Notes: generated by a model from the letters alone, not told the origin. Positions 50,651 to 64,000 are shown, numbered from the stretch's first letter. The stretch is 64,000 nucleotides of DNA from Alphaproteobacteria bacterium (GCA_964291415.2 OZ219917.1:64001-128000), one strand, 5' to 3'. Translations and numbers: made by a program.

Positions 50651-51488
50651 TCAGGTCCTGACGACGAGCCGTTGGTTTGGCCACGGGTGGCGGATGCTGG
50701 CTTTGGGCCAGTGGGCGGCGGTGAGGAGGTCAATATCCGTCCATTCGGTGCGATCCTTCTGAGATCGTCGCCGAAGCGCACACCTGAACAGCCTGCGGCA
50801 TTGGCGTATGAACCTCTGCAAGTCATGGCCGCTCCCGGGGACGGCAAAGTAGTTGAGCCAGCCATTGATAACTCGCCCAAGCCACTTGGCCGTTTCGTGC
50901 CGGTTGTCGTGCCACCGCATGCTCAGTGCCTCCTTGATCCGCCGCAGAGTGCGGCGGACCCGTTTCCGGGACGGTTTGCGGCCAACCCTGAACCGGCCAT
51001 TCCTCGTCTGCTCGCAGAAGTGCGTCATGCCGAGAAAGTCAAACGTCTCCGGCTTGCCCTGCCCCCGCTTGCGGCGGTTCGCTCTCGCAAACCGACCGAA
51101 CTCGATGAGCCGGGTCTTGTCCGGATGCAGTTCCAGTCCATAGCGGGCCAGCCTCTCCCCGAGGTCCCGGAGGAAGCGCTTCGCATCGCCCAGATGCTGG
51201 AAGCCGCACACAAAATCATCGGCATAACGCACGATGATGGTGTCGCCTCCAGCCATCCGCTTGCGCCATGTGTTGTGGAACCAGTCGTCGAGCACGTAGT
51301 GCAGATAAACGTTCGCAAGGCAGGCCGATACAATCGCCCCCTGCGGCGTTCCCCTGCCGGTGTCCGACCAGTCGGCCCCCTCCATGACGCCGGCGTTGAG
51401 CCACTTGACGATCAGCCTGATGACCCGCTTGTCCCCGATACGTTTCTCGAGCATCCGAACCAGATGGTCCCGGCCGAGATTGTCGAAG
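50651..51488 (-). CDS. ltrA: Group II intron RT/maturase, C-terminal part (RT3-7, X)
   Basis: FDNLGRDHL..., GTPQGA.VS..LANVYLHY.LD, RYADDF, LHPDKTR, FDFLG; no endonuclease domain. Confidence 0.92.
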
Positions 51489-51813
51489 GACCACCCGACA
51501 CACTACCCACCTCCGTGAGCTTCCGGTCTCGGTCAGGATTACGCGCGAGGCGCATCCCTATCAGGGCCAGTCGCTTGAAGTCCTGAAGCAGATTCGCCGG
51601 CAGGACGGCGTCCTGCTTCTTCTCCTTCTTGGTCCTGACGGCAGCCGCCGTCTTGTTCCCGTCGAGTGGACGGATGCCGTGCCCGGCGATGCCACCGGAC
51701 AACCGGGGACCGGTCATCAACTCACAGCCGGACCGCACGATCTGTTGCACTTGCGATCTCTCGTCGATGCTCTGCTCGCTCGTTCTGAAGCGGAGCCCTG
51801 TCGATGCAACTGA
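51481..51813 (+). CDS. DUF5372-like small accessory protein (no canonical start inside the element)
   Basis: Manual translation: ...VRITREAHPYQGQSLEVLKQIRRQDGVLLLLLLGPDGSRRLVPVEWTD...LLHLRSLVDALL; family assigned from memory. Confidence 0.6.
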   Translation, partial: CRRTTRHTTHLRELPVSVRITREAHPYQGQSLEVLKQIRRQDGVLLLLLLGPDGSRRLVPVEWTDAVPGDATGQPGTGHQLTAGPHDLLHLRSLVDALLARSEAEPCRCN

Positions 51814-51963
51814 ACCTGATCTTTCCGGGAACCCGGGAACCGCACGAGGAGCTGTGGACAGCCCTCGACGAGGAGACACGCCGCGTCGTGCTCGGAACGG
51901 CTGGCCGAGGTCATCGCCAAGGCGGCACCGGAGAAGCCCCAGGCGGAGAGCATCGGACCATGA
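51804..51963 (+). CDS. Small helical accessory protein upstream of the recombinase (1-nt insertion near 51893)
   Basis: MQLNLIFP...LWTALDEETRRVVL/ERLAEVIAKAA...GP*; corrected stop overlaps the recombinase ATG (ATGA). Confidence 0.55.
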
Positions 51964-54172
51964 CTGATGGCAAGATCTGTGCTGCACATCGGCAACGCCG
52001 TGCCCTCGTGTACGTCCGCCACGTCCTCGCCGTCCCAGGTCGAGAACAACCGCGAGTCGACCCGGCGCCAGTACGCCCTGGCCGATCGCGCCCGTGATCT
52101 GGGGTGGCACTCCGACCGGATCACGATCGTCGACGAGGACCTCGGCCTCTCGGGCGCCACTGCCGAAGGACGCAGCGGCTTCGCGCGCATGACCGCCGAA
52201 GTGGCCCTCGGCCAGGTCGGGCTCCTGCTCGGGCTCGAGGTGTCGAGACTCGCCCGCAACAACGCCGACTGGTACAGACTGCTTGACCTGTGCGGATTGA
52301 CCGACACCCTGATCGGCGACGCCGACGGCATCTATCATCCCGGCCTGTTCAACGACAGACTCGTCCTGGGACTGAAGGGCACCATGAGCGAGGCGGAGCT
52401 TCATATCCTGCGAGCACGGCTCGATGGCGGAATCCGCAACAAGGCGGCGCGCGGTGAGCTCTACCGAGGACAGCCCATCGGATACATCCGGGGCGAGGCC
52501 GGCGCCGAGATCCTTCTCGACCCCAATGAGGAGGTTCAGGCCGCGATCCGCGCCGTGTTCGAACGATTCGCCGAGTTCGGATCGGCACGCCGGGTGTGGC
52601 GCTGGTTCGTGATGGAGAAGCTGCACTTTCCCCACCGCTTCCACCGCCATGCCGAGCTTCGCTGGGAACCGCCCGCCTATCACACCATCCATGAAGTGCT
52701 GACCAATCCGGTCTATGCCGGCGCCTACGCTTACGGCAAGTCGCGGCGTGAGCGCCATGTCGACGAGAACGGCATCGTGCGCACGCGCATCCGCAGGCTG
52801 CCCCGCTCCGAATGGCAGGTACTGATCCACGACCATCATCCCGCCTATATCGACTGGTCCACCCACGAAGCCATTCTCGAGCGCCTGTCGCGCAACACCC
52901 GGCCGCTGTCGCATGGCGCGGGCAAGGGAGCGGTGCGTGAGGGAACGGCCTTGCTGCAGGGTCTCGGCATCTGTGGCGAGTGCGGGCGCCGCCTGGCGAC
53001 CCACTACACCGGCCGGACCTCCTCGCCCGGATATCATTGCAGGGGCAAGGAGCTGGTCGAGGCGCGGCGCTCCCTGTGCTTGCATGTGGGGGCCGTGCAG
53101 ATCGACCAGGCGGTCGCCAAGGCCGTCCTGGAGGCGATCCGACCGGCCGGCATCAAGGCCGCCTTGCAGGCGGTCGAGCGCATCGAGGCGGACTACGATC
53201 AGGCGCTCAAGCAATGGGGGCTCACCGTCGAGCGAGCACGTTACGAGGCCGAGAAGGCCGAGCGCCGGTATCGCGCTGTCGAGCCCGAACATCGTCTCGT
53301 CGCCCGCGGGCTGGAACGGGAATGGGAGCAGTGTCTGAACGCACTCGAAGAAGCGCAGAATGAGATGGAGCGGCGTCATCGCGACCGGCCGCGCCAACTC
53401 GATGCCGCCGAGCGCGATTCGCTCCTGGCCCTCGGCGAGGATCTCCAGCGCGCCTGGGATGCGCCCACGACGACGGCTCGCGACAGGAAGGAGCTGCTGC
53501 GCACGGTGCTCGATGAGGTCATCGTTCTTGCCCCGCGCGGCGAGTATCATATCCACCTGACACTGCGCTGGCGGACCGGGTTGTTGACCGAGATCGAACT
53601 CGAGCGCCCGCGCAAACGACGGGCGGCGGTCCGCACCGACGACGACATCATCGATCTGGTCCGCCGCCTCGCTCAGTTCCATTCCGATGCGGTGATCGCC
53701 GCCATACTCAATCGCCAGGGCAAGACAACCGCCTACGGGCATCCCTTCAATGTCCATCGCGTCGGCAATCTCCGCCGGCACTGGAGCATTCCGTGCTTCG
53801 ATCCAGCGACCGCGGCCACCGATGGCGAGCTGGTCAACATCGCCCAGGCGGCGAAGATACGTCGGCATCGCAACCTCGACGGTGCATCGATGGCTCAATG
53901 ACGGCTTCATCGACGGTGAGCAAGTCACGCCGGGAGCCCCGTGGCGCATCCGCATCACGGACGCGTTCCGTCCCAGGCTCATGGAAGAGGCGCCGCCCGG
54001 CTACGTCCCGATGATCGAGGCCATGCAGCGTCTCGGTGTGACCCGTCAGACCGTGTTGCAACGTGTAAAGCGTGGCGAACTCGACGCCATCCATGTCCGC
54101 GCCGGAAGAAAAAAGGCTCTACGTATCAGGGTTGTAGACGATAAGCCGGACCTCTTCGGTCACTCCGCATAA
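51960..54172 (+). CDS. Large serine recombinase (resolvase + recombinase + Zn-ribbon + C-terminal HTH), with two +1 frameshifts (about 52022 and 53861)
   Basis: MTDGKI...VYVR(Q)SS.SQV, DEDLG.SG, EVSRLARN, LGLKGTMSEAEL, NPVYAGAY.YG, CGECG. Confidence 0.9.
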
Positions 54173-54193
54173 GCTGGGGGACACGTATGACAA

Positions 54194-54842
54194 TGTCGAA
54201 GAATCCGCTGATATCCGCGTCCAGCACCCAGTTGACCTTGCGCCGCTCAATCCCGACCGTGACCGCGTCGAGCGCATCGTGCGCCCCGCGCCCCGGGCGG
54301 AACCCATAGCTGAAGCCGAGGAACTCCGTCTCGAAGATCGGCACCAGGATCGTGTCTGTCACCGCGCGCTGGACGATCTTGTCCTCCAGCGCGGCGATGC
54401 CGAGCGGTCGTTGCCCACCGTCCTCTTTGGGAATGTAGACCCGCCGTGACGGCAGCGCCCGGTACGCTCCCCTATGCAGGCGGCCCTGCAGGTCGCTCAG
54501 GCGACCGTCCAGACCGTCCGCGTAGTGGGCCCACGTCACGCCGTCGACCCCGGCCGCCGCGTCCTTCCTCAACGAGTGGAACGCGTCGCTCAGGGCCTCT
54601 GTCGTGATGTGGTGGAGGAGCGCAACAAGACGCTCTCCCGGGTTCCTCTTGGCTGCTGCCCGTATCCGGTCCGCCGCCTGTGGCACGCTTTCCCGCTTCT
54701 GGGCACGGCGCGTGGCGCGACTTTCCGGCTTCCCCTCAGGTCCGGCCCTTCGCTCCACGAGCTCCGCCGGCGCCAAGGCGCCTTTGTTCGCTCGCTTCAT
54801 CGCTACTATGGCCGAATCCGACTTCTCCAAATCGTTCGTCAT
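54194..54842 (-). CDS. ltrA: Group II intron RT/maturase, N-terminal part (RT0-3)
   Basis: LLHHIT, AAAGVDG, YIPK.DG..RPLGI..LEDKIVQ, SYGFRPGR..HDA, LDADISGFFD then the insertion. Confidence 0.92.
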
Positions 54843-55191
54843 CAGTTACGGACTTCTCCTTTCATCAGCGGCCCCGTACGACACGGGGCGACTTGGAGAC
54901 CTCCCGGGTCCCGGCAGAAGGCGTGCATACGTGCCTGGGTTCTCAGACGCCGCGGAGCCGGCTCGACCCTCGTCCTGTCGGTCCGAGCCGTGTTGCCTTC
55001 GACCCCTAGGACGGTCTCGGCACTCCGAACTTGGGATTTCGGCGCTCAATAGCCCCGCCCGCATACCCCGCTACCGACGCTTCACCGACAGCCTCACGAC
55101 TGCCCGCGCACGGCTCGCGGAGAAGGTTGGCTGACTAGGCCTTACCTCCAGCGGACTTTCACCGCCTCCCTTCTGCCAGTTGGCCCGGCAC

Positions 55192-55493
55192 TCCCCAGGT
55201 CCCGGTGGACTGCTTCGGCGCGTGCCATGGTTCTTTGACCCCGCGGAGCCCCTCGTCACCTCACCAAAACGACTCAACGGGTGTTGCCTTCGGCTCACGG
55301 GACGGCCTCGGCACTCCAGATCACTAGCTTTTCGGGTCTCGATAGCCCGGCCCACGCTTGCCCCCCCAACGCTTCGCCTGCCGCCTCGCGACGACCGACG
55401 CATGGTTTGCGGGGAAAGTGGTTGGTTGAGCTCTGTTTCTGCTTCTGCCAGGACATTCACCCGGCAACATTCCCACCAGTTTGCCTGGCGCAC
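55192..55493 (-). mobile_element. Orphan group II intron domain I (intron B remnant) directly 5' of intron A
   Basis: Starts GTGCGCC at 55493; ccagg/ctggtggg pairs with ccaccgg/cctgg; shares gagtgccgag..cgaaggcaacac and gaagcg motifs with intron A domain I. Confidence 0.78.
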
Positions 55494-55571
55494 CCCCCTT
55501 GTGCGTCCCCTTGCAATGCAATGACGCGGTGGTCATACTTTCATTCATCACCGATCAACGGGAGGAATGAG

Positions 55572-55856
55572 ATGAAACATTGGCTTATCGCAATCTGTGC
55601 TGGGATGTTCACATTCGGAAGCGCTGCCATGGCGGATGACATGATGGACTGCGCATTGTCCTACGATGTCTATGAAATGAGTGTGCCCCATACCGATCTT
55701 GAGGCATGCCCTGATGCAGTGGCCGCCGAGGGCCTGTTCTGCCGCCTCTCGGTCGTCGCGGAGGTAGCGACCATCTTCGCGTTTGACGAGGAAAGTGGCT
55801 GTCTTGTCAGCGCCGCATCATTCGAAGAGGACGAGTTCACCATCACAATTCACTAG
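55572..55856 (+). CDS. Small secreted acidic protein with four Cys in the mature part
   Basis: RBS ggagg, signal peptide MKHWLIAICAGMFTFGSAAMA; PHTDLEACP. Confidence 0.7.
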   Translation: MKHWLIAICAGMFTFGSAAMADDMMDCALSYDVYEMSVPHTDLEACPDAVAAEGLFCRLSVVAEVATIFAFDEESGCLVSAASFEEDEFTITIH

Positions 55857-55917
55857 GCTCTTACGAGGGGCGGGTGGCCGCCACGCGTGGCCCCCGCCTC
55901 AAAGCGGGGAAAGCGCC

Positions 55918-56331
55918 ATGCGAAATACTATCCTGCTGACCGGTGCTTTAGCACTGGTCATGGCTGCGTCGATGAGCGCGGCATTCACGCCGGGCGATCC
56001 TGTTCGGGGCCAGACTGTTTTCAAAAAGTGTAGTTCCTGCCACTCGGTTGAGGAAGGGAAGAACCGTCCCACAGGGCCGAATCTCTTGGGCGTTTTTGGC
56101 CGCCAGGCCGGCATCGTTGAGTTCCGCTTCAGCGAGAGCCTCGTGGAGGCTGGAGCGGCAGGCCTTGTCTGGACACCGGAACTAATGAACGCCTACATCA
56201 CCGATCCGAAACAATTCCTGAAGGACACGCTTGGCGTATCCAAGGTACGCAACAAGATGAAGTACAAGATGCGGAAAGAAGAGGACCGCGCTGACGTGAT
56301 CGCCTTCCTGATGTCCCTTCAGGAAGAGTAA
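55918..56331 (+). CDS. Cytochrome c2-like class I c-type cytochrome (copy 2)
   Basis: Signal peptide, CSSCH, GPNLLGVFGRQAG; colinear paralog of 33593..34012. Confidence 0.92.
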   Translation: MRNTILLTGALALVMAASMSAAFTPGDPVRGQTVFKKCSSCHSVEEGKNRPTGPNLLGVFGRQAGIVEFRFSESLVEAGAAGLVWTPELMNAYITDPKQFLKDTLGVSKVRNKMKYKMRKEEDRADVIAFLMSLQEE

Positions 56332-56863
56332 AAAGGGGCGTTGCAGAATGCTGATGGTGCTCGGACAACGACCGACAACCTATGCAAGCGTGAGTATCTC
56401 CAGATCTTTCCTACCGGCATGTTGTCCAGAGACAGAAGGGACAAAAATGTGATTCGGGCCATGAGTTGCGCACTGATAACATGTCGCACCATCAGGAAGA
56501 TTGCTGCGACGACACTGCGGGAACAAACCGAGATGCGTGCTGAGACTGAATCACAGGCGAGTTTCCCAGTTGTGCGACGAGAATGCTCCAAGTCCAACGT
56601 CTAGCCCGCTTTGGGGTGACCTCCGTTGGTTGCCACGGTCACCCGTCTTCCGTAATGGGGCGTTCGCCGTCAAACGCGATTTGTCGCATGGTTGTCTCCT
56701 AGACACCAAATTGCGCGGGAGGTTGGCCCCGACCGGCGCCGGGGTCAATAGGGCCGAACGAAGGGCTGAAACGGTTGCCTCCCATATGCTCCGCTCAACG
56801 GTAACGGTGATTGTGCTGTCGCCGCAGAGGTTCTGCGCATTCGCCTCGATTGCCACCGGGAAC

Positions 56864-56892
56864 GTGCTCCCCGACCACGCGGGGATGAACCA
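56864..56892 (+). CRISPR. Solitary type I-E-like CRISPR repeat (no array, no cas genes in window)
   Basis: GTGCTCCCCGACCACGCGGGGATGAACCA versus the typical I-E repeat GTG(T/C)TCCCCGCnnnnGCGGGGAT(G/A)AACCG. Confidence 0.55.
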
Positions 56893-57188
56893 ACGTCCGT
56901 GATGCGGGCCCGGACTGCCGCAGCGAGCGACCCACGGCGGACCGGTGGAACCCCATGGCTGCCATGCGCCTCTGCCCGTCTATCCAGGGGTGCCTTTCGC
57001 TGCCGGTATCGGGTACAGTTGCTCTCGAACGAAAGTGCCGATGAGGGAGACTCCACGGCGGGGAGGCGGCACGCTCCTGTCGCACGAGAGGAAACATCCC
57101 CATGGCGCCGAGCCGCCCCCCGGTCGCTCTGTCGCAACCGCTTCCCACCAACACCGCACCTGCGGTCACTTAGTCGCGGTAGGGATCC

Positions 57189-57530
57189 AGCCAGCCAGAT
57201 GCTGTCGGCCACATCCGTTTTGCGTCCCTTGATCTGCTTGACGTGCTGGGCATGGACCAGCACAGGCTTGATGCCGGCGTCCTCGAGAGCCTGGAAGGGC
57301 GCCTCCCAGTAGATGCCGGTGCCCTCCATCACGGCGGCGCTCACCCGATGCTCCTGGAGCCAGCGCACCATCCCGGCAAGGCCCTTGGGGAAGGCGCTGA
57401 ACTGCCGGGTCTCGACAACCGCCTCCTTGCCGGGCTGTGCGATCCTCACGCTCGCCGTGATCTCGACCTTGTGGATGTCAAGACCGGCCGCACGCTCATG
57501 GATGACATTGAGATGATCGTTTTCTACCAT
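57189..57530 (-). pseudogene. IS110 family recombinase, N-terminal RuvC (DEDD) fragment
   Basis: GLDIHK, VMEGTGIYW, HVKQIKGRKTDVADSIWLA, then similarity ends abruptly. Confidence 0.88.
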
Positions 57531-58036
57531 GACGCTTCCTCCGTCTGTTGGGGGTGGCGGAAGCGGGAGACCTCCGGACAGCTGACAGATATCGATGGCG
57601 ACATCGTGCGTTTTGCTGTTCGTCCACGGATTGAACCGGGTACTTCGCGGGGTGCGAACCGTCAGTCTGGGACAGTTTGTTAACGGGCATGAAGCCTCGA
57701 AATTAAAGCGTCCACGAGCCCGCTTCCGCCGTGAGTGTGTTGCACTCAAGGCAGGCGGACAATACGCGCCCGACTCCGAGCAGGCCTGTTACATCAACAC
57801 GCCGGGTGTGCCTGAAACGACAGGATCATGGCAGTTTGTTTGTCCACATGCGGTCCGGTGTTCCGACATTCCGGTTTCTGCGCCCTGTGGCCAGGGGGAC
57901 GTGCAGCTCGTGATCCAGGAAGCATGAGTGGGCTGCCTTCCCTTGATCACGGTAACGTGACCTGACGTGAGGGCGCCGGGCGGTGCTGTGACCACGTTCA
58001 TCGGTAACGTTACCGCGTACAATGGGATCCCAGGTC

Positions 58037-58327
58037 TCATGTGTCCCGTCCGTAGCCGCGCGGTGGCTCGATCTCCTCGAGGGCCTCGATGTCGGCCTCG
58101 ACGATGATTTGCAGGCGCTCTCCATAGGCCGTGTCATGCAGGGGGTCCGGGAGCCTGTCGAGACAGTCCCGATAGTGCTCCTGCAGTGCGCCGAGTTCGG
58201 CCACCGCATCGCGCCAGCGTTGGGCACGGGAGCGCCGGTCGCGGGGCTTGCGGGTGCGCACGGGAGGGTTGCCGGCCTTGAGCCGTTCCCGATAACGTCG
58301 CTGTTTCTCTGCAGGCGTGAGGGCCAT
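58037..58327 (-). CDS. Small hypothetical protein (96 aa) directly after the IS110 C-terminus
   Basis: RBS aaggag; MALTPAEKQRRYRER...RSRAQRWRDAVAEL..LQ..Y...IEPPRGYGRD. Confidence 0.75.
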   Translation of the reverse strand: MALTPAEKQRRYRERLKAGNPPVRTRKPRDRRSRAQRWRDAVAELGALQEHYRDCLDRLPDPLHDTAYGERLQIIVEADIEALEEIEPPRGYGRDT

Positions 58328-58340
58328 GAGGGAGTCTCCT

Positions 58341-60509
58341 TCACGCCGGCAACCGTGCCGGTGCTTCGGGCGACCAGCAGCGCTGTTCCCGCAGCAGGGC
58401 GTTCGCCAGCACGATGAGTTTGCGCATGAGGGCGACGATCGCCACCTTGTGGGCCTTGCCGGCGGCCTTGAGGCGTTCGAACACGCTTGCGAGATCCTGG
58501 TTGCAGCGTGATGCCGTGGTGGCGGCCATGAACAGGAGATCGCGTGGCCTGCGGCGCCCGCCGCGAATGTGCCGGGTGCCGTGGTGCTGGCCGCTGTCGT
58601 CGGCAACCGGCGCCACTCCGATCAACGCCGCCGCCTGGCGACCCTCGAGACTGCCGAGTTCGGGCATCCAGCAAAGAAGGGCGGCGGCGGTCACCGGACC
58701 GACGCCGGGGATCGAGATCAGGATGCCGTACTTCTCGGCCTGCTCGGGATCACCGGCGATCACCGCTTCGATCGCCGCATCCAGTGCGGCAATCCTCTCG
58801 TCGAGATCGGCGACCGTGGCCCGTGTGAGGGTCTCGCCCTCGCCGTCCACCTCACCCGCCACCTGCCTCAGCATCTTGCGTGCATCGACATGCCTGGCGC
58901 GCACCACCAGGAGGTCCTCCAGGCGGTTGAGGAACGCCTCCTGGGGAGCCACGGGCTCAAGGTCGTCGAGCACCGTCCCGAGCCTGGCCAGCATCAACGC
59001 GTCGACGCGGTCGGTTTTGGCCAGATGGCCCAGCGCCTCGGCGAAGCGCCGGGTCGGCCATGGATGGCGGATACGCAGCTGCGGCCAGAACGCACGCGCC
59101 AGAGAACCAACGGTGGCCAAAGTGGCACGATCCATTTGGGACCGACGCCGCAGCACACGGCACCAGATCTTTAGAAGTCGCCGCACGAACCGCTTGAGGG
59201 ACAGGAAGCTGGTGGAGACGGCATAGTAGCCGAGCCAACCATCAACGACCCTTCCGAGCCATTTGGCCACTTCATACCGGTTGTGGTGCATGCGGTGGCG
59301 CAGAACCGTCCGGAGACGAGCCAGGGTTCGGGTGACCCGTTGCCTGGCCGGCTTGCGCCCCAACCCGAAGCCTCCGCTCCGCGTGGTTCGGCAGCAATGC
59401 GTGAACCCGAGGAAGTCGAAGGTTTCGGGACGCCGTTCCCCTCGTGCCCGACGGTTCGCCATGGCGAACTTTCCGAACTCGAGGAGACGGGTCTTGGCAG
59501 GGTGAAGTTCCAGCGAGAACCGAGCCAGTCGTTCCTTCAGATCGTCGAGGAACCGTTCCGCGTCCTGCCGATGCTGGAATCCGACCACGAAGTCATCGCC
59601 GTATCGCACGATGAACGTGACACCACGGGCTGTCTGGGTGCGCCACTTCTTCTGGAACCAGAGGTCGAGGGCGTAGTGGAGGTAGATGTTCGCCAGAATC
59701 GGCGAGACGACCGAACCCTGCGGAGTGCCCCGCAGGTTGTCCCTCCATTCACCCTCGTCCATGGCACCGGCATGGAGCCACTTGGCGATCAGCCGGATGA
59801 CCCGTCTGTCACCAATGCGGTGTTCCAGGAACCGGAGAAGACATCGTCGGTCAATTCGGTCAAAGTAGGACCGAATGTCCGCGTCAAGGATCCAGTTGAT
59901 GGAGCACCGTTCTATCCCGTAGGCCAGAGCATCGAGCGCGTCATGCGCCCCGCGCCCCGGTCGGAACCCATAGCTGAACCCGAGGAACTCCGGCTCCCAG
60001 ATTGGCTCAAGGATGGTCTCGACCACCGCCTTCTGGACGATCTTGTCCTCCAGCGCAGCGATGCCAAGCGGTCGTGTCCCCCCGTCCGGCTTCGGGATGT
60101 TCACCCGTCGGGACGGGAGCGCTCGGTACGCGCCGCTGTGAACACGGTCATGCAGGGCGAGCAGACGCTCGTTCAGTCCATGTCCGTATTCGTGCCACGT
60201 CACCCCGTCCACCCCTGCCGCCGCGTCCTTCTTCAACGAGAAGTAGGCAGCGCCGAGAGCGTCCGTCGTGATGTGGTGCAACAGCGCAGTGAGCCTCTCC
60301 TTCGGAGTCCTCGTGGCCCTTTGCCGTATCCGCTCCGCCGCCTGTGACATGCGAGCCCGGCCCTGTGTCCGGTGCATGCTTTGGTGTCGCGGATTCCTCT
60401 TGGTTTCGGCCCTTCGCTCCATCGCCTCCGCCAGAGCCTCGGTTCCCTTGTTCGGCGACTTCACAGCTACTATGCCCGAATCCGATTGCTTCAACTCGTC
60501 CATCTTCAT
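58341..60509 (-). CDS. In-frame fusion of group II intron RT/maturase and the IS110 recombinase C-terminal half (722 aa)
   Basis: RT motifs through RYGDDF and HPWP; from RRFA onward AKTDRVDA, SIPGVGP..AA, GVAP...DSG, IRGGR, GKAHKVAIVALMRKL. Confidence 0.88.
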   Translation of the reverse strand: MKMDELKQSDSGIVAVKSPNKGTEALAEAMERRAETKRNPRHQSMHRTQGRARMSQAAERIRQRATRTPKERLTALLHHITTDALGAAYFSLKKDAAAGVDGVTWHEYGHGLNERLLALHDRVHSGAYRALPSRRVNIPKPDGGTRPLGIAALEDKIVQKAVVETILEPIWEPEFLGFSYGFRPGRGAHDALDALAYGIERCSINWILDADIRSYFDRIDRRCLLRFLEHRIGDRRVIRLIAKWLHAGAMDEGEWRDNLRGTPQGSVVSPILANIYLHYALDLWFQKKWRTQTARGVTFIVRYGDDFVVGFQHRQDAERFLDDLKERLARFSLELHPAKTRLLEFGKFAMANRRARGERRPETFDFLGFTHCCRTTRSGGFGLGRKPARQRVTRTLARLRTVLRHRMHHNRYEVAKWLGRVVDGWLGYYAVSTSFLSLKRFVRRLLKIWCRVLRRRSQMDRATLATVGSLARAFWPQLRIRHPWPTRRFAEALGHLAKTDRVDALMLARLGTVLDDLEPVAPQEAFLNRLEDLLVVRARHVDARKMLRQVAGEVDGEGETLTRATVADLDERIAALDAAIEAVIAGDPEQAEKYGILISIPGVGPVTAAALLCWMPELGSLEGRQAAALIGVAPVADDSGQHHGTRHIRGGRRRPRDLLFMAATTASRCNQDLASVFERLKAAGKAHKVAIVALMRKLIVLANALLREQRCWSPEAPARLPA

Positions 60510-60862
60510 TTCGGATCGTTTCCTTCCTTCCGCGGCCCCGGTACGACAACCGGGGCAAGTTGAAGCCCTCCCGAGTCCCGGTGCAGGGGTGTACGTGCGT
60601 CCCTGGATTCCTCTGACACCGCAGAGCCCGGTCTGTCCTCACCAAAGCGGACATGCCGGTGTGGCCTTCGGCAGATATCAGTGCCTCGGCACTCTGGAAC
60701 TTAACCTTTACGGTGCTCAATCATCCCGGCCACACGCACCGCTACCGACGCTTCGGCCGTGCCCTCACAGGCGCGTCCGCACGGCTCGCGGTGGAAGTGG
60801 AGGTTACCCTTTCTTCCCGTCGGACTTTCACCGACTCCCCTGCGCCAGTTAGCTCGGCGCAC

Positions 60863-60977
60863 GACATCATGGATTGACCATGACCTGCCCTCCTCGATGT
60901 GGCTCTGTACTCACGGGTTCCTGACCTCGAGCATAACCCACGATCCTCGAGGCCAGGGCAGGTCAATCCATGATGTC
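60863..60977. repeat. 115-bp imperfect palindrome (MITE-like) with 17-bp perfect terminal inverted repeats
   Basis: gacatcatggattgacc (60863-60879) / ggtcaatccatgatgtc (60961-60977); inner tgacctgccct/agggcaggtca. Confidence 0.8.
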
Positions 60978-61275
60978 TGACCGGAATGTTCTGTCGGGTC
61001 CGAAAGAGCCTACGGATGTCGTCCGCGATGACGGCGGGCATTATCGATGCCCTGGGGAACATGCGGCGGATCGCCGGCTGATCTGATCGACGGGAGGGTC
61101 CGAAGCTCAACCGGTCCGTGACCTGTCGCGTGCGCCACAATTCAAATTGAGCACCACCCGACCGCCTTGCGGTTTGACAAACAGGTCCGGGCCCCGAAGG
61201 GTTCGCCCGATCATGCGCGGGCCGGAATGCCGGTCCGGCGTACCAGGAAACATGCCCACGAGCCGGGGAATCGGG

Positions 61276-63327
61276 ATGTCCTATCGCGTCGGAGTCGATA
61301 TCGGTGGCACGTTCACCGATTTCTTCGTGTTCGACGAGACCACCCTGGAGACACAGGCCCTGAAGGTGCCGTCGCGCCCCGACAGGCCGGGCGCCGAGGT
61401 GCTCGAGGGTCTGCGTCAGCTTGAAGCCCGCTTCGGCATCGCCCCCGGCGAGATCATCCATTTCAGCCATGGCACCACCGTGGGCGTGAACACCGTAATT
61501 CAGCGCAAGGGCATCAGGCTCTGCCATTTCACGACCGAAGGGTTCACCGACGTGCTCGAGGTGGCCCGGCTGAGAACGCCGGACGTCTACAACCTGCTCT
61601 CGAAACGTCCTGCTCCTCTCATCCCGAGGGAGCGCGTCTTCCCGGTCGCGGGGCGCCTGGCGAGCGACGGCAGCGAACTCCAGCCGGTCGACAGGACCAG
61701 CGTCGAGGCCGCCGTCGCAAAGGCGCGCGAGGCGCGCGCCGAAGGCATCGTCGTGGCGCTCCTGAATGCCTACCGCAATCCGGCCCACGAGCATGAGGTG
61801 GCTGCCCTGGTGCGCGTGATGGCGCCGGAACTTCCCGTGTTCTGCTCTGCCGACGTCTGGTCGATCATCCGCGAGTACGAGCGCACGATCACCGCCGTCA
61901 TCCACGCCTACGTGCAACCGCGCGTCAGCCGCTACCTGGGCTCGCTGCAGGATGCGCTGCGCGAGGCGGGCGTCCCGGCCGAGCCGCTTGTCACGAAGTC
62001 CAACGGCGGGGTGATGAGCGCCGAGATGGGCAAGACCGCCTGCGCCCAGATGATCATGTCGGGCACCGCCTCGGGCGTGATCGGCGCGAGCCATGTCGCC
62101 GTGCTCTCCGGGTGCCGCAATGCCATCAGCTTCGATGTCGGCGGCACCAGCGCCGATGTCGCATTCATCGCCGACGGCCACCCGCAGTACGGTATCGGAG
62201 AGATGATCGGCGAGTTCCCGATCTACATCCCGACGGTGTCGGTCACCTCGATCGGCGCTGGTGGTGGATCGATCGCCCGCATCGACGATGCCGGTGTGCT
62301 CAACGTGGGACCCGAAAGCGCCGGCGCGGTGCCGGGCCCGGCCTGCTACGGCACGGGCGGCGACGAGCCGACGCTGACCGACGCCTTCGCCGTTCTGGGT
62401 TACATTGGCCGGACCGGCCTCGGCTACGACACGGTCCCGGTGAAGACCCGCGCCGCCCGCCGCGCCATGGGCGCGCTCGCCGGGCGCATGGAGCGCAGCG
62501 TCGAGGAGACGGCGGAGGCCATCGTCCAGGTGGCGGTGTCCGGCATGTACCTGGAGGTCTCGAAGCTCGTGTCGTCCCGGGGCATCGATCCGCGCGACAA
62601 CGCCCTCGTCGCCTTTGGCGGCGCGGGCCCCATGATCGCCTGCTTCCTGGCTCGCGAGCTGAACATGTCGACCGTCGTGATTCCGACGGCACCCGGTGTC
62701 CTGAGCGCCATGGGCGGCCTGATCGCCGATCTCAAGAACGACTTCGTCCGGACGATCTACGCCGATCTCGACGCCGGGACGGCGCCCGCGATCCGGGATG
62801 GCTTCGAATCCCTGCGGAACCTGGGCGAGCGATGGCTGCGCCAGGAGCAGCGCTACGACGGACCCGCCGCCTACATCCACTCGGCGGACATGCGCTACAA
62901 GGGACAGTCCTTCGAGATCGAGGCGGTCCTCGACCCGGACGCCATCGAAAAGGGCGATGTCGCGGCACTCGGGGAGGCATTCCACGCCGCCCACGAGCAG
63001 CTCTACGCCCATGCGGACAGGGCGGCGCCGGTCCAGATCGTCAACCTGCGTCTGGTCGCGCTGGGCCAGACCCCGAAGCCTCGCTTCGAGTCCGCCGACG
63101 GGATGCCGGCCGCCGCGCAGCCGGAGGACAGCATCCCGATCCACGCGCAAGGCCGGACCGTCCGGGCCGCGCTGTTCCGGCGCGAAGCCTTGCAGCCCGG
63201 TCACACGTTCAGCGGCCCGGCCGTCGTCCTGCAGAACGACACCACCGTCTGCGTGACGGAGGACTTTCAGGCCCGTGTCGACGGCTACGGCCAGCTGATC
63301 CTGACCCGGGGAGAGGGAACCCGATGA
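61276..63327 (+). CDS. Hydantoinase/oxoprolinase subunit A
   Basis: GVDIGGTFTD, HGTT.G.N, IREYERT, FDVGGTSADV, GAGGGS, GPESAGA.PGPACY, FGGAG. Confidence 0.93.
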   Translation: MSYRVGVDIGGTFTDFFVFDETTLETQALKVPSRPDRPGAEVLEGLRQLEARFGIAPGEIIHFSHGTTVGVNTVIQRKGIRLCHFTTEGFTDVLEVARLRTPDVYNLLSKRPAPLIPRERVFPVAGRLASDGSELQPVDRTSVEAAVAKAREARAEGIVVALLNAYRNPAHEHEVAALVRVMAPELPVFCSADVWSIIREYERTITAVIHAYVQPRVSRYLGSLQDALREAGVPAEPLVTKSNGGVMSAEMGKTACAQMIMSGTASGVIGASHVAVLSGCRNAISFDVGGTSADVAFIADGHPQYGIGEMIGEFPIYIPTVSVTSIGAGGGSIARIDDAGVLNVGPESAGAVPGPACYGTGGDEPTLTDAFAVLGYIGRTGLGYDTVPVKTRAARRAMGALAGRMERSVEETAEAIVQVAVSGMYLEVSKLVSSRGIDPRDNALVAFGGAGPMIACFLARELNMSTVVIPTAPGVLSAMGGLIADLKNDFVRTIYADLDAGTAPAIRDGFESLRNLGERWLRQEQRYDGPAAYIHSADMRYKGQSFEIEAVLDPDAIEKGDVAALGEAFHAAHEQLYAHADRAAPVQIVNLRLVALGQTPKPRFESADGMPAAAQPEDSIPIHAQGRTVRAALFRREALQPGHTFSGPAVVLQNDTTVCVTEDFQARVDGYGQLILTRGEGTR

Positions 63328-64000
63328 CGATCGACAAGGTGACCCTGCAGATCCTCTCCAATCACTGCCAGGCGGCGGCCGAGGCCATGGCGCGCACGCT
63401 GATGCGCACGGCCCATTCGACCTTCGTGAAGGAAAGCGAGGACTTCACCTGCGGCCTCGTGACGCCTGGAGGCAAGACCTTCGCCTCGCCCTTCGACTTC
63501 GGGGCCACATGGTTCGTCGGTCTCGACTACGCGCGCGGCCTCGGCCTCATCGATGCTTATGACGAGGGCGATGTCGTCATCTGCAACGACCCCTACAGCG
63601 GGTTCGTCTGCACCCACACGCCCGACATGCATATCTGGAAACCCATCTTTCACGACGGCGAGGTGGTCTGTTTCGCCGTCGGCCACGTGCACAACACCGA
63701 CATCGGCGGCGCCGTGCCGGCGAGCCTGTCGCGCCAGCTCACGGAGGTGCACCAGGAGGGCCTGCGGCTGCCGCCGACCAGGCTCTGCCGCAAGGGCGAG
63801 CTGAACCGGGAACTGGTCGACATCATCATGGCGAACGTGCGCATGCCCGAGCAGAACTGGGGCGACATGAAGGCGCAGCTGGCATCGGTCAACATCGCGG
63901 AAGCGAGAGTGAGGGAGATCATCGCCCGCTTCGGCGCCGACACCTTCAGGGAAGGCGTCGAGGATCTGCTCAATCTCGCCGAGACCCAGGCGCGGCGGGT
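63324..64000 (+). CDS. Hydantoinase/oxoprolinase subunit B, partial (runs off window)
   Basis: Manual translation: MTIDKVTLQIL...AEAMARTLMRTAHSTFVKESEDF...NDPYSG...THTPD...H..DIGG.VP.S...QEGLRLPP. Confidence 0.92.
   Translation, partial: MTIDKVTLQILSNHCQAAAEAMARTLMRTAHSTFVKESEDFTCGLVTPGGKTFASPFDFGATWFVGLDYARGLGLIDAYDEGDVVICNDPYSGFVCTHTPDMHIWKPIFHDGEVVCFAVGHVHNTDIGGAVPASLSRQLTEVHQEGLRLPPTRLCRKGELNRELVDIIMANVRMPEQNWGDMKAQLASVNIAEARVREIIARFGADTFREGVEDLLNLAETQARR

Follow-up and report, generated by a model that had tools for sequence, protein, structure and literature searches.

Does a single open reading frame (ORF) that begins as a group II intron reverse transcriptase (RT) and ends as a bridge recombinase of the IS110 family represent a protein architecture that has been put to use, or is it what was left when two mobile elements, both already falling apart, became joined? 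The ORF that raises this question, 722 amino acids (aa) long, lies within 64,000 nucleotides (nt) of DNA from an Alphaproteobacteria bacterium (GCA_964291415.2 OZ219917.1:64001-128000; this whole stretch is called "the window" below, and positions are counted from its first letter). A first-pass annotation had described it as an RT fused in frame to an IS110 recombinase at a microhomology, had taken an accidental deletion to be the most likely origin and had held out a new architecture of RT plus RNA-guided recombinase, should the fusion recur elsewhere. The answer arrived at here is that the ORF is very probably an accidental in-frame chimera of two decayed mobile elements, made by microhomology-mediated illegitimate recombination, which is an already known kind of event, namely mobile-element decay giving a chimeric pseudogene.

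The frame itself is as continuous as had been claimed, the ORF listing of the window giving 58341..60509 (-) as one ORF without interruption, and its domains can be read along it with Pfam: RVT_1 at residues 138-370 (E 7e-34), GIIM at residues 394-457 (18.4 bits, which is under the 23-bit cut-off), DEDD_Tnp_IS110 at residues 482-545 (only profile positions 77-140 of 155) and Transposase_20 at residues 596-674 (E 8e-17). The motifs that had been named in advance were found where they had been placed, with YGDD at residues 303-306, HPWP at 482-485, RRFA at 487-490 (59040-59051) and the serine of the SG pair within DDSGQ at 637-641, and the IS110 part also holds KTDRVDA at 498-504. Because both halves give strong in-frame family matches, the fused ORF is not a chance ORF of the kind that GC-rich DNA produces. 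The IS110 part, which derives from an element called IS110-A here, is indeed present, although "C-terminal half" understates it, as codons 80-315 of approximately 315, or about three quarters of the protein, are retained.

The junction was searched for as DNA with a 341-nt spanning query in 33 genomes of the order, that of the window (G000) included. Relatives of the RT stop at query position 182 (window 59039), relatives of IS110-A begin at query positions 162-174, mostly at 168 or 170 (168 being window 59053), and both sides of the junction are spanned by the window's own genome alone. The closest intact RT found (P0001, 495 aa, with 96% identity reported over the searched region) ends in ...HPWPTRRFAVTHSR and a stop, i.e., in RRFAVTHSR, and the IS110-A parent sequence at the join reads ...PLRARRFAEVMGHLAKTDRVDA; both parents thus encode RRFA, and 15 nt are common to the two lineages, which bears out the microhomology that had been proposed. 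On the RT side, this 15-nt identity would follow from the point at which the relatives stop aligning, the best intron relatives recovered being 81% identical (L017 in DNA, L102 in protein). Contig pieces of four sequencing runs (X1, X19, X2 and X3) were also compared with window 57600-61100. An RT-like metagenome contig (X2 record 17, 7 mismatches in 248 nt) has its alignment end at 59039, and the alignment of an IS110 contig from X3 ends at 59053, so these two match the separate parents in other samples.

Recurrence was looked for among proteins, loci and genomes. Among 5.8 billion proteins, a word-indexed search with scoring on fusion residues 400-600 returned 13 matches, none of them a fused form, each covering at most 45% of those residues and each carrying RVT_1 alone, except for one that also has GIIM. 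When 1.84 billion representatives were searched exhaustively with HMMER (221-aa junction-spanning query, E<=0.001), 1772 matches were returned, the best 150 of which are all one-sided and include no fused form. Three candidates with alignments of at least 40 residues across the junction were rejected, being an IS110 fragment (P0014), an RT C-terminus with read-through (P0094) and an ordinary IS110 protein (P0126), as was P0054, which aligns in two stretches, the better of which ends at residue 335 of 340 and leaves no space for an IS110 part. All three of the longer proteins that contain IS110-A, among them a hydantoinase chimera (P0164), are devoid of an RT. At the DNA level, the fused ORF is found at none of 159 related intron loci (79 genome contigs and 80 metagenome contigs), a single one of which (L089, the same place as L019) has IS110-A directly downstream on the same strand, and a search of 61 genomes found the junction spanned in G000 and in none of the 60 other related ones. 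A literature search, judged by titles and abstract starts, found no paper on an RT-IS110 fusion. The possible new architecture is therefore not borne out, as no other protein combining an RT with Transposase_20 came up and the ORF is a singleton in every search; the view that the event was most likely accidental is, by the same absence of homologous fusions and by a junction lying in 15 nt of both parent lineages, supported.

What, then, has each parent lost? The RT half differs from P0001 at 11 of the 490 aligned residues, and the RT of this intron class, which is without an endonuclease domain, stops right after HPWP...RFA. The intron RNA upstream is still recognizable in the window, with its GTGCG 5' end at 60858-60862 (-) and an Rfam match to group-II-D1D4-6 (RF02005) at 60607-60828 (-) of 156.2 bits vs. 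a gathering score of 49. In the intact relatives, domains 5 and 6 (D5 and D6) come directly after the RT stop and finish in ...CTACCGCGAC (L019; L017; L102-L104), and RF00029 matches L019 and L022 at 34 bits (34.5 bits for L019). Across 54000-64000 of the window, the Rfam search gave no RF00029 match at E<=1, and IS110-A sequence comes straight after the RRFA codons, at the place where D5 and D6 stand in the relatives. Of the intron, domains 1 to 4 (D1-D4) and the 5' end survive, whereas the stop codon, D5 and D6 do not. Being without the catalytic core (D5) and the branch site (D6), the intron would therefore neither splice nor retrohome: its ancestor was a bacterial group II intron of the ordinary kind, and, having no D5/D6, it is not itself a functional one. 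Four of the 11 RT differences (W223C, V280A, Y372C, P432S) fall at the 206 columns that are invariant in 21 relatives, where random placement of 11 changes would put about 4.6; among the other RTs, P0001 has no such changes, most have 0-2, four have 4-6 and one has 10. Judged from this alignment, the changes at invariant positions agree with relaxed constraint on the RT half.

The IS110 part, on the other side, is what is left of an ordinary recombinase gene of the IS110 family, with neither a complete DEDD set nor a left end. With phmmer, fusion residues 488-707 align to residues 92-313 of the IS621 chain (8wt6_A, whose numbering is native IS621 numbering + 2; E 1e-12). D500 and D503 of the fusion are the equivalents of IS621 D102 and D105, and S639-G640 those of S241-G242 (chain S243-G244); the equivalents of D11 and E60 (in GIDVSK and MEATG of the intact copies) sit in the missing first 79 codons, so the absence of the first RuvC D and E residues, asserted previously, is confirmed by this alignment. 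As described in PMC11208158, the RuvC (1-122), coiled-coil (123-188) and Tnp (189-326) domains of IS621 make composite active sites, recombination is lost on mutating any of D11, E60, D102, D105 and S241, and it is the left end of the element that expresses the bridge RNA. At the fusion locus, the right end of IS110-A is present and the left end is gone, with homology to intact or near-intact copies starting at codon 80. The IS110 half has 82-93% protein identity to copies at 7 related loci, some of which have intact transposase genes; in related genomes, the intact copies encode approximately 315 aa and then a conserved 96-aa ORF (L010). The other copy in the window's genome (G000:C2:86224-87433, "the C2 copy" below) has 90% DNA identity to window 59053-57838 and is frameshifted near codon 22. 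As D5/D6, the left end and two of the four RuvC catalytic residues are all gone, we infer that the fusion product would be unable to act as either of its parents.

The 5' side of the intron is informative as to how it came to be where it is. On inspection of the alignment, the loop GAUAUC (60670-60683), a proposed exon-binding site 1 (EBS1), pairs with the exon end GAUGUC with one G-U pair, and in L083, L102, G011 and the second intron of the window this same loop is paired with other exon ends; the 5' junction therefore has the appearance of one made by true homing. The exon in question is identical to the left-end terminus, read in antisense, of a third element of the IS110 family (IS110-C); the 5' part of IS110-C constitutes a multi-copy repeat of approximately 104 nt (60876-60985). 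Other copies of this repeat in G000 are at C1:229137-229240, C2:1297247-1297357 and C2:682287-682396, among others, and full IS110-C copies run on into an IS110-type N-terminus reading MVEYNAFVGLDVHKETIAV. The window intron appears to home into IS110-C ends. Seventeen nt upstream of the 5' junction, the sequence switches to the IS110-C sense strand at a 4-nt overlap, and this marks another rearrangement.

That group II introns settle in other mobile elements is well known, and for this family the targets of homing include IS110-family elements, in one instance a left-end terminus and in another a transposase gene. The latter case is G011:C5 (L019 2349-4470; L089 is the same place), where an intron with 72% DNA identity lies inside an IS110-A gene in sense orientation, between codons W33 and R34 (5' exon IS110-A nt 1-99, 3' exon from nt 100), and retains its own stop, D5 and D6 as well as an EBS1-like loop complementary to that IS110-A site. 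The IS110-A gene there also has a 125-nt internal deletion, nt 123-232 being lost between two 15-nt stretches that resemble each other, the second one being the RFA site of the window junction; the short GC-rich motif is thus shown to be liable to microhomology events. A G011-like ancestor of the window locus, with the intron at IS110-A codon 33/34 and slippage between RRFA sites, was considered and rejected, as the 5' exon in the window is antisense IS110-C and pairs with the intron's own EBS1. Rejected too was IS110-A as a general homing site of the family, given that it holds for only 1 of the 159 loci, with L047 and L028 having distant or weak IS110 matches elsewhere. At G005:C2, near 2594901-2598250, 2669079-2671321 and 3033120-3036469 (L020, L021), IS110-A and a related intron stand head to head approximately 550 nt apart, and the first bases of the introns look replaced; the arrangement may reflect targeting of one element by the other, or else a composite unit that is repeated.

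Put together, the accidental chimera would have arisen as follows. An intron without an endonuclease domain would first have entered an IS110-family element by homing, at the left-end terminus and in antisense. The intron's 3' end (the final 5 RT codons with the stop, plus D5 and D6) and the sequence beyond would then have been replaced by the 3' three quarters of a different IS110 element, IS110-A, the join falling within the 15 nt common to the RRFA codons of the RT C-terminus and of IS110-A. The route may have been a deletion or a replication template switch at the microhomology, joining two element fragments that were probably inert already. The chance of such a join being in frame is 1 in 3, and open frames persist easily in a genome of 65% GC. 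Of the "accidental deletion" suggested initially, the accident thus stands, deletion being only one possible route; as the 5' flank of the intron is rearranged as well, the history comprises more than one event.

Several observations do weigh against this explanation. The immediate parents were not found, no intron DNA closer than the 81% of L017 being recovered. The junction is without read confirmation, and no piece bridging 59039-59053 is among the contig pieces listed, which is not evidence because there are 218 further pieces outside that list. Neither half holds a stop, and the IS110 half is undecayed, with 0 unique changes at 145 invariant columns and a ratio of nonsynonymous to synonymous substitution rates (dN/dS) of 0.25 vs. 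the C2 copy. (The dN/dS estimate had been suggested for both halves; it was obtained for the IS110 half, the RT half being judged by its invariant columns instead.) Most of the divergence between the IS110 half and the C2 copy must predate the join, and an undecayed IS110 half is what a young accident predicts; selection on the C-terminal half gives the same picture.

Of all the results, the intactness of the IS110 half is the one on which a functional reading could draw. The ORF would then encode a functional new protein, either an RT tethered to the IS110 coiled coil and Tnp domain or a modulator of IS110-A that pairs with full-length protomers. The 722 open codons, the undecayed IS110 half and the retention of the coiled-coil dimerisation domain and the catalytic Ser-Gly loop speak for it, as does the assembly of IS621 active sites in trans between protomers (PMC11208158). 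The protein is, however, a singleton in all searches, its RT is changed at 4 invariant positions, the left end (the source of the bridge RNA in IS621), the D11/E60 equivalents and D5/D6 are lacking, and the sole other IS110-A copy in the genome is frameshifted, which leaves no full-length partner. Such a function is thus hard to credit, and it is just as far-fetched that the chimera is expressed and kept, as the first natural hybrid of an RT and a bridge recombinase or as a truncated protomer regulating IS110-A recombination in trans. A functional fusion would link reverse transcription to RNA-guided recombination, and every test made here argues against it.

An assembly artefact, with two loci joined at a short shared sequence, is improbable, if somewhat less so. 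The join does lie inside sequence common to two repeat families, the contamination score of the genome is 8.99%, and no bridge over 59039-59053 is seen among the X1 contig pieces listed. Against this, 15 shared bases are fewer than assembler word sizes, the join lies within a 1.24-Mb contig, the flanks are not collapsed repeats (the nearest copies in the genome are at 90% for IS110-A and 72% for the intron), and the perfect-match contigs of X1 are similar in depth on the two sides of the junction, 18.5 vs. 22-27. Among the 20 listed sequencing runs containing words of the window, X1 holds 0.67 of the sampled words, and none of the 20 is an RNA run.

Could the intron's own RT have made the junction, with its complementary DNA (cDNA) on the intron RNA primed by the 3' end of IS110-A DNA, or with a template switch from an IS110-A transcript to the intron RNA, at the 15-nt match? 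The outcome would be a retro-chimera that is non-functional all the same. A precise intron 5' end on an exon pairing with its own EBS1 is what reverse splicing would be expected to give, the loss covers exactly the 3' end, where cDNA synthesis usually starts, and the intron belongs to a class without an endonuclease domain; RmInt1 is a comparable intron of this class, and RmInt1-type introns depend on foreign DNA 3' ends as primers. Nothing, however, tells such an event apart from microhomology recombination at the DNA level, the same motif gave the purely DNA-level 125-nt deletion in G011:C5, and IS110-A runs on through its accessory ORF to the right end, as a DNA copy would. An RT-made junction is therefore unlikely, even if it is the least unlikely of the three departures from the accidental DNA-level chimera that we favour.

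Table 1. Features of the fused ORF and of the elements around it, in window coordinates.
Feature	Position	Strand	Remarks
Fused ORF, 722 aa, ATG start	58341..60509	(-)	RT residues 1-490, IS110-A residues 487-722, overlapping in RRFA
15-nt junction common to both parent lineages, encoding RRFA	59039..59053	(-)	RT relatives align up to 59039; IS110-A relatives from 59053
Group II intron RT/maturase part	59040..60509	(-)	490 of the 495 aa of P0001; final 5 codons and stop missing
Intron RNA 5' part, domains 1 to 4a	60510..60862	(-)	GTGCG start at 60862
Proposed EBS1 loop	60670-60683	(-)	Intron RNA
Proposed exon-binding site 2 (EBS2)	60715-60726	(-)	Intron RNA
16-nt 5' exon (homing site)	60863..60878	(-)	Identical to antisense left-end terminus of IS110-C; last 6 nt pair with proposed EBS1
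IS110-C fragment: left end and 5' untranslated region to second codon	60879..60985	(-)	Multi-copy repeat of approximately 104 nt
IS110-A transposase codons 80-315 and native stop	58341..59053	(-)	RuvC tail with KTDRVDA (D500, D503), coiled coil, Tnp with S639-G640
Conserved 96-aa accessory ORF of IS110-A	58037..58327	(-)	No Pfam match; downstream of transposase in intact copies
IS110-A non-coding right-end region	57838..58036	(-)	Clear homology to the C2 copy until near 57838
IS110-B, N-terminal fragment of unrelated IS110-family transposase	57183..57488	(-)	DEDD profile positions 1-105 of 155, then out of frame

The surroundings (Table 1) are a patchwork of broken elements: the IS110-C fragment, the 3'-truncated intron, the 5'-truncated IS110-A, a fragment of IS110-B and a split second intron. 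Similarity of IS110-A to its C2 copy may extend, more faintly, approximately 60 nt past 57838. The C2 copy itself (L002, G000:C2:84705-88406) comes directly after a truncated TnpB-like gene (OrfB_IS605). The 96-aa ORF (MALTPAEKQRRYRERLKAG...; window 58037-58327 (-); L010 2242-2532) follows the transposase in all IS110-A copies examined, has a dN/dS of 0.17 and may serve this IS110 subgroup as an accessory gene; the C2 copy differs by 4 nt in a way that joins this ORF in frame to the transposase. IS110-B (window 56745-57749 (-)) has no other copy in the genome and starts within approximately 300 nt of the right end of IS110-A. In the second group II intron (50651-55448 (-)), an insertion encoding a 644-aa large serine recombinase (51967-53901 (+)) divides the RT into two parts, 54126-54842 and 50651-51454, and, as tandem D1-D4 matches (55229-55448 and 54938-55159) lie upstream of that RT, a third intron fragment may be present. 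An 820-aa ORF at 60742-63204 (-), antisense to a hydantoinase gene, is an example of a long spurious ORF in a GC-rich genome.

The chimera itself is of little biological importance, and the homing of introns into IS110 elements may be of interest to mobile-element specialists. The main value of the chimera is that of a warning: short GC-rich microhomologies between unrelated mobile elements can yield long, clean, multi-domain ORFs in GC-rich genomes, and annotation pipelines or surveys of domain architecture could take such ORFs for new enzymes.

How does the locus compare with what is already known? A 637-aa protein (P0164; Hydant_A_N, Hydantoinase_A and Transposase_20, its IS110 part being 62% identical to IS110-A) is a precedent for an accidental chimera, alike in that the C-terminal part of an IS110 protein is joined in frame to an unrelated protein, once, on one 3.2-kb contig; it differs in having another partner, a join approximately 25 codons deeper into IS110 and no RT. 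(A hydantoinase gene, at 61147-63327 (+), borders the mobile-element cluster in the window as well.) G011:C5 resembles the window locus in its two element families, their order and their strand, with IS110-A resuming at nearly the same RFA codons, whereas its intron is unfused, with stop, D5 and D6 in place, and its RFA breakpoint comes from a separate deletion within IS110-A. With the endonuclease-less bacterial group II introns of the group-II-D1D4-6 type, the window intron shares D1-D4, the GTGCG end, the pairing of EBS1 with intron-binding site 1 (IBS1), and RVT_1 with a weak GIIM; unlike them, it has lost the final 5 codons with the stop as well as D5 and D6, and its RT is altered at 4 invariant positions. 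As to IS621 (PDB 8wt6), the fusion keeps the equivalents of D102 and D105, the coiled coil and the Tnp domain with its Ser-Gly, whereas, in contrast to IS621, it lacks the first approximately 79 codons, which carry the D11 and E60 equivalents, together with the entire left end.

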